A stretch of 64,000 bases of DNA, from NCBI RefSeq assembly GCF_036365525.1, contig NC_090411.1, forward strand, positions 31,822,432 through 31,886,431. The letters run 5' to 3'. The notes beneath the pieces were generated by a model. The model had not been told where the DNA came from and did not search any database. It saw only the letters and a list, made by a program, of their open reading frames with translations. The stretch is from Heterodontus francisci (Eukaryota). Shown in pieces: positions 7,465-62,173 of the stretch; positions within the stretch are counted from its first letter, which is position 1; each line of letters opens with the position of its first letter. The position numbers were made by a program, and so were the translations under genes.

Positions 7465-7664
7465 GTGATATCATTAAGACTAACCTCCCAAACCTGCCTG
7501 TATTCCAAAGCTCTGATTGGCTCTGGGTCTCACCCAACCCCCACATCCCGTCTCCTTTGTCAATTGGTGCCTGGATTCATGGGAGATTCCTGACTGGTTA
7601 TCAGGCATTGGTGATTTGGTGATGTCATTCACCATTTGAATGCAGACTGTCCCAATAGTATAAA
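7465..7664 (+). promoter_or_regulatory. Ferritin copy 1 proximal promoter
   Basis: Inverted CCAAT (CTGATTGG, ~7513), kappaB-consensus GGGAGATTCC 7581-7590, TGATGTCA 7620-7627, TATAAA 7659-7664; same module lies upstream of every copy. Confidence 0.7.
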
Positions 7665-7735
7665 TACAAGAGCTTGTCAGGAAGAGATTCTATTGTTGTG
7701 TTTGAACTTATTGTTTGTGAACAGTATAAGTTAAA

Positions 7736-59385: not shown

Positions 59386-59914
59386 GAAGTTGTGATGCTG
59401 GAATGTTAAACCACGAGGTACTGTCAGATGTATAGAAAGACAAGGAATCTTCAGGAAGGGTGCAAAGGAGGTTGACCAGAGATTTACCAGGGATGAGGGA
59501 CTTCAGCTATGAGGAGAAGCTGCAAAAGTTAAGACTGTTCTCCATGGAACAGAGAAGGTTAAGAGGTGACTGAACAGAGATCTTCAAAGTGATGAGAGGG
59601 TTTGATAGAACAGATAGAGAACAAAAGCAGTGACATCATCGAGACTAAGTTTCCAAATCTGCCTGTACTTCAAAGCTCTGATTGCCTCTGGGTCTCTGCC
59701 CCTCCCTAATAGCCCCTCCCCTTTGTTAATTGGTACCTGGATTCATGGGAGATTCCTGACTGGCTATCAGGGATGTCAATCATCGTTGGTGATGTCATTC
59801 CCTGTTTGAAATCAGGCTGTGCCAGTGGTATAAAACAAGAGATTGTGTTAGAAAAGGTAAGTGTAAGTTGTAGAGCCTTCTAGGTGGTAGTAATAGTATA
59901 TAGTAAAAGTGAAG

Positions 59915-62173
59915 ATGGCTTCTCAAGTGTGTCAGAACTACCACAAGGACTGTGAGGATGCTGTTAACAAGCAGATCAACCTGGAGCTCTATTCCTCCTA
60001 TGTTTACCTATCCATGGTGAGTTTTGTATTCCTTGTCACTGCATTCTGAAAAATTGTAATTTCTCTTGTGTAGTTAACTAGCTTTAAACAACTTTTCTCT
60101 TTCCTCTGAAAAGTTGTTGTGGGGGGAAAGAGGGAGATGGCAATTCTTTGAACAGAGTGCTGTAAGTGTGTAATACAGGGGGGTCTTTGTGAGTTAATGG
60201 ACTGCTGCTTGTAGCAGCTGCTTTCTATTGAGGCTTAATGTGTGAAACTAGTTTAGTTACTACTTGAGTTTGTAACTGAACACGCCTGATTTTTTTTTTT
60301 TCTTTTCAGAAAAATGTTTAGTCTCAATGGAATGATGTATTTTTTTTTTATTAAAAAAAAATCACTTGACACTTTTCACTGCCCCAGGATGTCCAAATAC
60401 TATACAGTCAATGAAATGCTTTTTTTTTGTTGTGTAAACACTGATGGAGGAAATGCTGCAGCCAATTTCTGTGCAGGAAGTTCTCTCTTGACAATGAGAC
60501 AGCAATTAGATTATCTGGTTTGGTGAATTATAGTTGAGAAAGGTTGGCAGGACACAGGAGAGAACTTTCTTTCTTTTGTAGTGTTATGTTCCCAATCCAG
60601 CTGATTTGGGGGGGGTGCTTTAGGTGAATATCTTGTCATGTGAATGCCTGGAAATAGGAGCAGAGATGAGTTTGATTGGAGATGACATGTAATTCCAAAA
60701 TCTTTGTCATTTGAATCTTCCTTCCTTAGGATAACATCCCCCTCTTGAACATTCAAAAATAGTAAATTGAATTTGTTGCTAGTTAACATTGTATCCATAT
60801 TCTCAAAGATTGAGAGCTCATTAACTGGGGAAATGTGGTAAATGATCTTGAATTCTATATTATGATCTAGATCCAACATGAAGCTGTTTAAATTCTCTCC
60901 ACAGTCCTATTACTTTGACCGGGATGATGTTGCCCTGTGTCACTTTGCTGAGTTCTTCAAGGAGCAGTCACATGAGGAACGGGAGCATGCTGAGAAACTG
61001 CTGAAATTCCAGAATAAACGTGGAGGCCGAATCATCTTGGAGGACATCAAGGTTGGGTTTAATGAATGTATGGCCTCCTGTCTGGAACCCTTTAGATAGA
61101 ATTGGTTCCCATTTGAATCCATGGTTGTGATGGGTTAATGCAATAATTCTATATTTGAACACATTGGTTCTTCGTAACATGGACTTGTGTTTTTTTTTTT
61201 TTTTGCCCCTTTTTCTGCCCGCCCCAATTGTTTACCTTTTTTATACTTGTGTTTTTGTTTTAATCCATTGTAAGTGAACTGTCTGACTTTCCTCTTCAGA
61301 AGCCAGAGCAGGATGAGTGGAGCAATGGTCTGGAGGCAATGCAGAGAGCTCTGCAGATGGAGAAGGATGTGAACCAGAGTCTGCTGGATCTGCACAAACT
61401 CTCCACTGGCAACACTGACCCTCATGTAAGCTCTTTAATGTGGGCTGTTGGATTAAGTGGAGGTGGTTAAAACCTTTCCTGTTCAGAAGATCTCTATTCT
61501 CAATAGCTTTGTGTTGAGATGTCTCACTTGGGTTTCTTCTGGGAGTGGGGGAGGTTAGTCTACTGTAAACATTGACTAGTCAAGTGATCCTGTGGTTTAA
61601 GCAGCTACTGAATAGCAATTGCTGTGCATTGGAATAATTTTAACATCAAACTCTATTACACCTCTTGACTATTTTTCCCCCAGTCCAAGAGGGAGCAGAT
61701 TTCTGGTAAGAAGCAATAATGTGAAAAATATCTCTCCAAGTGGTTGGGATCTGAAATCCACTACCTGAGTGGTGGAAGCAGGTTCAATGGAGGGAATTGA
61801 TTTGTCTTCCAAAAGGAAGAATGTGCTGGGCTACAGCCAGAGGAGTGGCTCCAGGTAAATGGCTTTTGGAGAGCCAGCACACACATGACTGGCCAAATGG
61901 CCTCCTGTGCTGTAACAATTGATTTTTTGGATTAAAATCCAAAGTAAAAGCAAAGCTCATTGCTTGGTATCTGCTGTTGGACATAACTAGCTGCTTTTTT
62001 TCCTTCCACCCACTCAGTTGTGTGACTTCCTGGAGACTCACTACTTGGATGAGCAAGTGAAGATGATCAAGAAGCTTGGCGATCACATCACCAACCTGAA
62101 GAGACTGGGAGCCCCTGACAATGGCATGGGAGAGTACCTGTTTGACAAGCACACGCTGGAGGAGAGCGACTGA
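59915..62173 (+). CDS. Ferritin H/M-type subunit copy 8 (176 aa, intact)
   Basis: Exons 59915-60016, 60905-61051, 61300-61425, 62018-62173; TATA ~59829, kappaB 59747-59756; R46C; ends LEESD*; AATAAA ~62310. Confidence 0.93.

Follow-up and report, generated by a model that had tools for sequence, protein, structure and literature searches.

The ferritin mRNAs encoded in the analysed window (64,000 nt of Heterodontus francisci, contig NC_090411.1, positions 31,822,432 to 31,886,431) very probably carry no iron-responsive element (IRE). On balance, the array is read as a source of bulk ferritin whose output depends on promoter and gene dosage and not on iron, with the ovary or oocyte as the probable site.

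Eight ferritin units were located in the window, arranged head-to-tail on the + strand with four coding exons each (Table 1). Open frames of 175–176 aa were found in copies 4–8. Because copies 1, 2 and 3 are broken, the intact genes at issue number five and not eight; an earlier sequence-only reading of this DNA had counted the units correctly and omitted these defects. Copy 1 lacks the first 2 nt of exon 4, which places a stop at the normal acceptor, and no poly(A) signal was found for it within 400 nt, so that it is probably broken; an alternative AG 17 nt upstream of the exon 4 acceptor would preserve the frame, and the 2-nt gap may stem from an assembly error in a run of TG. In copy 2 the frame is shifted by the loss of 2 nt from exon 2, and the deletion in copy 3 has removed the end of the leader and the first 14 codons, including the ATG. 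No flanking gene was recognised in the window. One contig of 2528 nt (X2), which matched window positions 10373–10504 and 7563–7827, ran from exon 4 through 2127 nt into the promoter and exon 1 of a next copy; the tandem layout is thus also present in another sample, either as DNA or as read-through RNA.

Table 1 Coordinates of the ferritin units and of the copy 1 subregions in the window
Feature	Position	Strand	Details
Copy 1 proximal promoter	7460..7665	+	TGATTG 7514; kB-like word 7581; TGATGTCA 7620; TATA box 7659
Copy 1 TATA-to-ATG interval	7659..7735	+	77 nt, no IRE
Copy 1 coding region	7736..10516	+	Exons 7736-7837, 9251-9397, 9968-10093, 10366-10516; probably broken
Copy 2	13443..15581	+	TATA 13443; ATG 13531; pseudogene
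Copy 3	23102..25008	+	TATA 23102; pseudogene
Copy 4	28577..30835	+	TATA 28577; exons 28666-28767, 29808-29954, 30197-30322, 30683-30835; intact, 175 aa
Copy 5	36095..38214	+	TATA 36095; exons 36183-36284, 37195-37341, 37582-37707, 38059-38214; open frame, 176 aa
Copy 6	41237..50306	+	TATA 41237; exons 41342-41443, 42444-42590, 42995-43120, 50151-50306; intact, 176 aa
Copy 7	54382..56413	+	TATA 54382; exons 54470-54571, 55460-55606, 55810-55935, 56261-56413; intact, 175 aa
Copy 8	59829..62173	+	TATA 59829; exons 59915-60016, 60905-61051, 61300-61425, 62018-62173; intact, 176 aa

Mobile elements were noted in the non-coding DNA. Intron 3 of copy 6 (43121–50150) extends over 7 kb and holds reverse-transcriptase-like ORFs at 44942–45942 (+) and 49215–49715 (−), labelled by eye, as well as a tRNA-like stretch at 44545–44617 that is probably a SINE. 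Broken frames resembling LINE endonuclease/reverse transcriptase, likewise read by eye, lie in the spacers at 18678–21468 (−) and 2113–2856 (+). An 831-nt element, probably young and mobile, is found at 3750–4580 and again at 33485–34312 with 97.5% identity.

IRP control of H and L ferritin and the defining features of the IRE are described in PMC11719527 and PMC13026281, respectively. TATA-to-ATG intervals measured 77, 88, 89, 88, 105, 88 and 86 nt in copies 1, 2, 4, 5, 6, 7 and 8; the sequence-only reading had put them at about 60–105 nt, of which the shortness held and the lower bound had to be raised to 77 nt. CAGTG, corresponding to the CAGUGN apical loop, occurred in none of the eight intervals. 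A motif scan for a bulged C and a 5-bp upper stem with any of nine loop patterns, alternative IRE loops included, was negative in all eight as well (for copy 4, no IRE in 89 nt), and as a control it returned IRE-like stems upstream of 22 of 48 metagenome ferritin loci. In copies 4, 5, 7 and 8, CAGTGG precedes the TATA box by 6 nt and has 1–2 of 5 stem pairs. Since 1.3 loop hexamers were expected by chance in the 621 nt of intervals, a missing hexamer is weak evidence, and the absence of an IRE was therefore judged by model searches with controls.

The Rfam search (RF00037), which the sequence-only reading had proposed as a check, was run on the window DNA; across the whole 64 kb, no IRE reached E ≤ 10. 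As a control, 20 of 61 ferritin loci from a metagenome scan were searched, and IRE_I was found in nine, the other 11 giving no match; none of the 61 loci is a shark ferritin with leader, and most appear to be non-vertebrate, as judged from identity. A custom covariance model, built from 20 of the control IREs and run unfiltered, gave no sense-strand match in the 64 kb at E ≤ 10; its single minus-strand match (10.6 bits) was attributed to chance. Of 31 control loci outside the training set, some of them closely related to that set, 17 matched the same model at E < 0.01 and 14 did not, some of the 31 having no 5′ end. Folding of nine weak hairpin candidates from other parts of the window put none in IRE register. 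The claim that all eight copies lack a 5′ IRE was thereby confirmed, and the absence extends beyond the leaders to the entire sense strand of the window.

An upstream exon that supplies an IRE had been named as the observation to overturn this claim. For copies 2–8 a local exon of this kind is unlikely, because their entire upstream spacers lie in the window and contain no IRE; the upstream region of copy 1 extends beyond the window edge. Within the leaders, AG acceptors were preceded by at most 9 pyrimidines in 15 positions, compared with 10–11 at the exon 2 acceptors, and none was common to all copies. Contigs from relatives, possibly RNA and carrying no information on start, strand, level or tissue, contained GT-AG joints of exons 1–2 and 2–3, and no joint of exon 1 to an upstream site was among the joints listed. 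The X7 contig joins the TATA region to the ATG (short side 27 nt; weak), and in X6 and X8 the loose contig ends that precede the ATG (25–30 nt covered) were free of CAGTG. A stable hairpin with CAGTGG precedes copy 5 (35106–35152, −14 kcal/mol) and copy 7 (53393–53439, −17 kcal/mol) by about 970 nt; it lies inside a 1.47 kb block that is 96.5% identical between these two copies, and its fold is out of IRE register.

The promoter (−200 to TATA) was 82–84% identical among seven copies versus 61% in far upstream DNA. Leaders were 66% identical among copies, close to the ends of intron 1 (64–67%), and no fold common to all leaders was found. With identity at the level of intron ends, next to a conserved promoter, the leader sequence looks unconstrained.

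Copy 1 had been noted to retain a stretch resembling the 3′ arm of an IRE. GTGTTTGAAC is indeed present at 7698–7707, once in the window, and agrees exactly over 10 nt with the 3′ part of the Rfam IRE consensus; the resemblance did not exceed chance (p = 0.14 against shuffles, with 24 of 914 window tiles scoring equally high). The stretch was absent from the other seven copies, and the contig of a relative departs from it at 3 of 10 letters (7699, 7700 and 7704); as an IRE relic it is treated as unproven. Copy 3 gave p = 0.01 against one IRE with a 13-nt match just past the TATA box, as one of eight such tests.

A homologous promoter with a TATAA(A/G) box precedes all eight copies, and the contigs of relatives show the same promoter with the TATA box unchanged. 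The transcription start was placed by inference about 30 nt after this box. Two public proteins, P0048 (Cetorhinus; 24 residues) and P0015 (Heterodontus; 28 residues), have N-terminal extensions whose reading frame passes through the TATA box and on to the real ATG. Their residues exclude CAGTG there, except that P0048 may have one adjacent to its ATG. This indirect evidence suggests a short IRE-less leader common to several shark orders. P0001, P0003, P0015, P0030 and P0048 are all over-long annotations of shark-array ferritins, some reading through the TATA box, for which reason published shark ferritin copy counts and gene models are possibly unreliable.

Further words were shared among the promoters. 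The kB-like word GGGRNWYYCC was found in six of eight, a count that is not independent because the copies share motifs by descent, and is missing from the intact copy 4; TGATGTCA was found in seven of eight, 39 nt before the TATA box in six and 29 nt in one. Column conservation was 0.93 for the kB-like word and 0.98 for TGATGTCA. Among the differences listed for relatives, position 4 of the kB-like word is C in contigs of two of them (X7 and one X6), and TGATGTCA is disrupted in X7. TGATTG occurred in six of eight promoters, including all five intact copies, and TAATTG in five of eight and in both relatives' contigs. These match LHX8 and NOBOX sites as given in PMC4282238, and are equally readable as inverted CCAAT boxes; their conservation (0.83 and 0.90, respectively) is not above the promoter average of 0.84, so the LHX8/NOBOX reading is a weak one. 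Scans for ARE, MRE, STAT and E-box motifs found nothing common to the copies, and the 260 nt around each TATA box held neither an ARE nor an MRE match. None of these promoter words is decisive for the tissue of expression.

The ferroxidase ligands E27, Y34, E61, E62, H65, E107 and Q141, numbered from an alignment to known ferritins, are complete in copies 4, 6, 7 and 8, which are predicted to be catalytically competent H/M-type ferritins; in copy 5, intact in other respects, Gln replaces Glu27 in exon 1. A relative, P0012, matched frog M ferritin (1mfr) and human H ferritin (1fha) with E ~1e-82 each. The proteins start with MASQV and lead straight into the ferritin helix, with no N-terminal extension. 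Codon 141 of copies 4–8 (exon 4; human H position 144) encodes Met beside the ferroxidase ligand Q141. Among the listed matches in the tree, 23 of 24 shark rows have Met at human position 144, versus 0 of 13 other rows; it is a putative family signature and may affect catalysis.

The closest proteins among the matches listed were multi-copy ferritins of Heterodontus, Heptranchias, Pristiophorus and other sharks, and the family is present across many shark genera. A tree of 45 rows (the five window proteins, 37 of 120 listed matches and three loci), with no labelled FTH1a or FTL rows, placed the five intact copies within a single 29-row shark clade (support 100/99), in which copies group by species for Heptranchias and Pristiophorus. 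Identity among the copies was 99–100% in exon 3 (e.g. 9968–10093), 90–98% in exon 1 and 64–67% at the ends of intron 1; the exon 3 identity looks like the product of exon-level gene conversion. In all 15 pairs, synonymous codon differences outnumbered or nearly equalled non-synonymous ones (6–12 versus 3–8).

The gene expansion itself is already published, and the lack of an IRE makes the array a regulatory variation on it. In bioRxiv 10.1101/2024.09.09.611499, the Greenland shark is reported to have more than 100 ferritin copies in clusters common with and syntenic to those of the white shark, and one sentence gives the expression of its largest cluster as ovary-specific. PMC13214024 names the family FTH1b, finds its copy number raised in sharks generally, and reports some copies as transcribed in fin and blood, with a proposed role in ferroptosis. 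Judged by tandem layout and by the multi-copy shark clade, the window genes probably belong to these FTH1b clusters, which are likewise tandem, four-exon and high-copy. The terms 'IRE', 'iron-responsive' and 'UTR' do not occur in the main text of PMC13214024, nor does 'iron' in bioRxiv 10.1101/2024.09.09.611499, and no ferritin passage was found in bioRxiv 10.1101/2025.02.19.638963. No report of IRE loss in shark ferritins was found in the searchable literature, which excluded most subscription journals and bioRxiv supplements.

Other IRE-less ferritins offer partial parallels. The sequence-only reading had cited mitochondrial ferritin as an IRE-less exception, which is correct as one case and not the sole one: the yolk ferritin of the snails Biomphalaria and Lymnaea also has no IRE and is linked to egg provisioning, according to PMC10799875, and is the best functional analogy to the window array. 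A signal peptide and a 42-aa insertion mark the snail protein, and both were absent from copies 4–8 when read by eye; as the shark proteins (175–176 aa) open with the ferritin helix itself, they give no reason to assume export to yolk. According to PMC7760355, FTMT, a retrocopy that has no introns and bears a targeting leader, is outside IRE/IRP control, and the germline ferritin FTHL17, present in six copies in mouse, carries E62K and has no ferroxidase activity; the shark genes, in contrast, have three introns, a TATA box and E62. The hadal snailfish fthl27, with 14 broadly expressed, lineage-specific copies, is another tandem ferritin amplification in fish, and its expansion reduces ROS in cells (PMC10746142); 'IRE' does not occur in that paper.

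Instead of serving as bulk ferritin, an IRE-less array could be induced in somatic tissues by inflammation or stress through NF-κB and CRE/ATF-type sites, thereby withholding iron or limiting lipid peroxidation. The kB-like word (6/8) and TGATGTCA (7/8), with their well-conserved columns, would fit this, as would the fin and blood transcripts with the ferroptosis proposal and the lowered ROS in snailfish (PMC13214024 and PMC10746142, respectively). However, intact copy 4 has no kB-like word, C at position 4 breaks the kB consensus in two relatives (among the differences listed), TGATGTCA is broken in the X7 contig, and no ARE or MRE match lies within 260 nt of any TATA box; this explanation is considered unlikely. 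Among the roles suggested by the sequence-only reading, the immune one thus lost ground with the kB-like word apparently lost in two relatives, whereas a tissue-bulk role, in the ovary, has support from the Greenland shark report. Decidedly improbable is birth-and-death redundancy, in which a single IRE loss by drift was spread by duplication and conversion and the copies have no dedicated role. Three of eight copies are broken and one more has no Glu27, the spacers are rich in retroelements, and copies group by species in Heptranchias and Pristiophorus, all of which would fit such redundancy; yet it sits poorly with the synonymous differences at or near parity or above in 15 of 15 pairs, with a promoter conserved more than its flanks, and with a family kept in many shark genera and reported as syntenic in white and Greenland shark.

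Iron regulation might also be hidden, with the control lying in an exon far upstream, in an IRE of non-canonical form or in some different translational switch; the probability of this is put very low. Weak AG acceptor-like sites do occur in several leaders, the CAGTGG hairpin precedes copies 5 and 7 by about 970 nt, the searches miss some control loci (11/20; 14/31, some with no 5′ end), and the upstream region of copy 1 leaves the window. But no sense-strand model match was obtained in 64 kb, the hairpin is out of IRE register and confined to two of eight units, leaders are just 66% identical with no common fold, and no exon 1-to-upstream joint was among those listed.

For the promoter- and dosage-controlled array, the following course is proposed. 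Teleost and amphibian M chains carry an IRE, and measured against these the element would have been lost early in sharks. The window copies belong to the same fold family as vertebrate cytosolic H/M ferritins, with intact ferroxidase ligands in copies 4, 6, 7 and 8, and differ from them in the missing IRE, a short A/T/G-rich leader and Met at human position 144. Transcription from about 30 nt past the TATA box would yield a leader of 49–77 nt unable to bind IRP1/2. Because no unit carries an IRE, the mRNAs are predicted to be translated whatever the iron content of the cell; the escape from iron-dependent control proposed by the sequence-only reading is in this respect partly supported, and follows if the TATA-defined start is right. 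Output would likely be set by copy number and the shared TATA promoter. Empty ferritin shells could then be built before any iron is loaded, a timing that an IRE would rule out in a cell poor in iron, while FTH1a and FTL elsewhere in the genome would keep ordinary iron-regulated storage. The ovary as the site is carried over from another species, and transcripts of some FTH1b copies in fin and blood, reported in PMC13214024, speak against ovary-only expression.

A broader and more tentative possibility is that sharks have a second, ancient ferritin system of tens to hundreds of IRE-free catalytic genes, with a NOBOX/LHX8-type germ-cell promoter and the Met signature, that mass-produces ferritin in oocytes to serve as the main maternal iron store. 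If true, it would be a vertebrate counterpart of snail yolk ferritin and would explain an expansion so far interpreted in terms of longevity or ferroptosis. If the present reading is true, the short list of IRE-less vertebrate ferritins would gain a cytosolic family that has introns and is catalytically intact. If the expanded copies are IRE-less, they are disconnected from the main iron feedback loop, which would favour a programmed bulk role such as egg provisioning.
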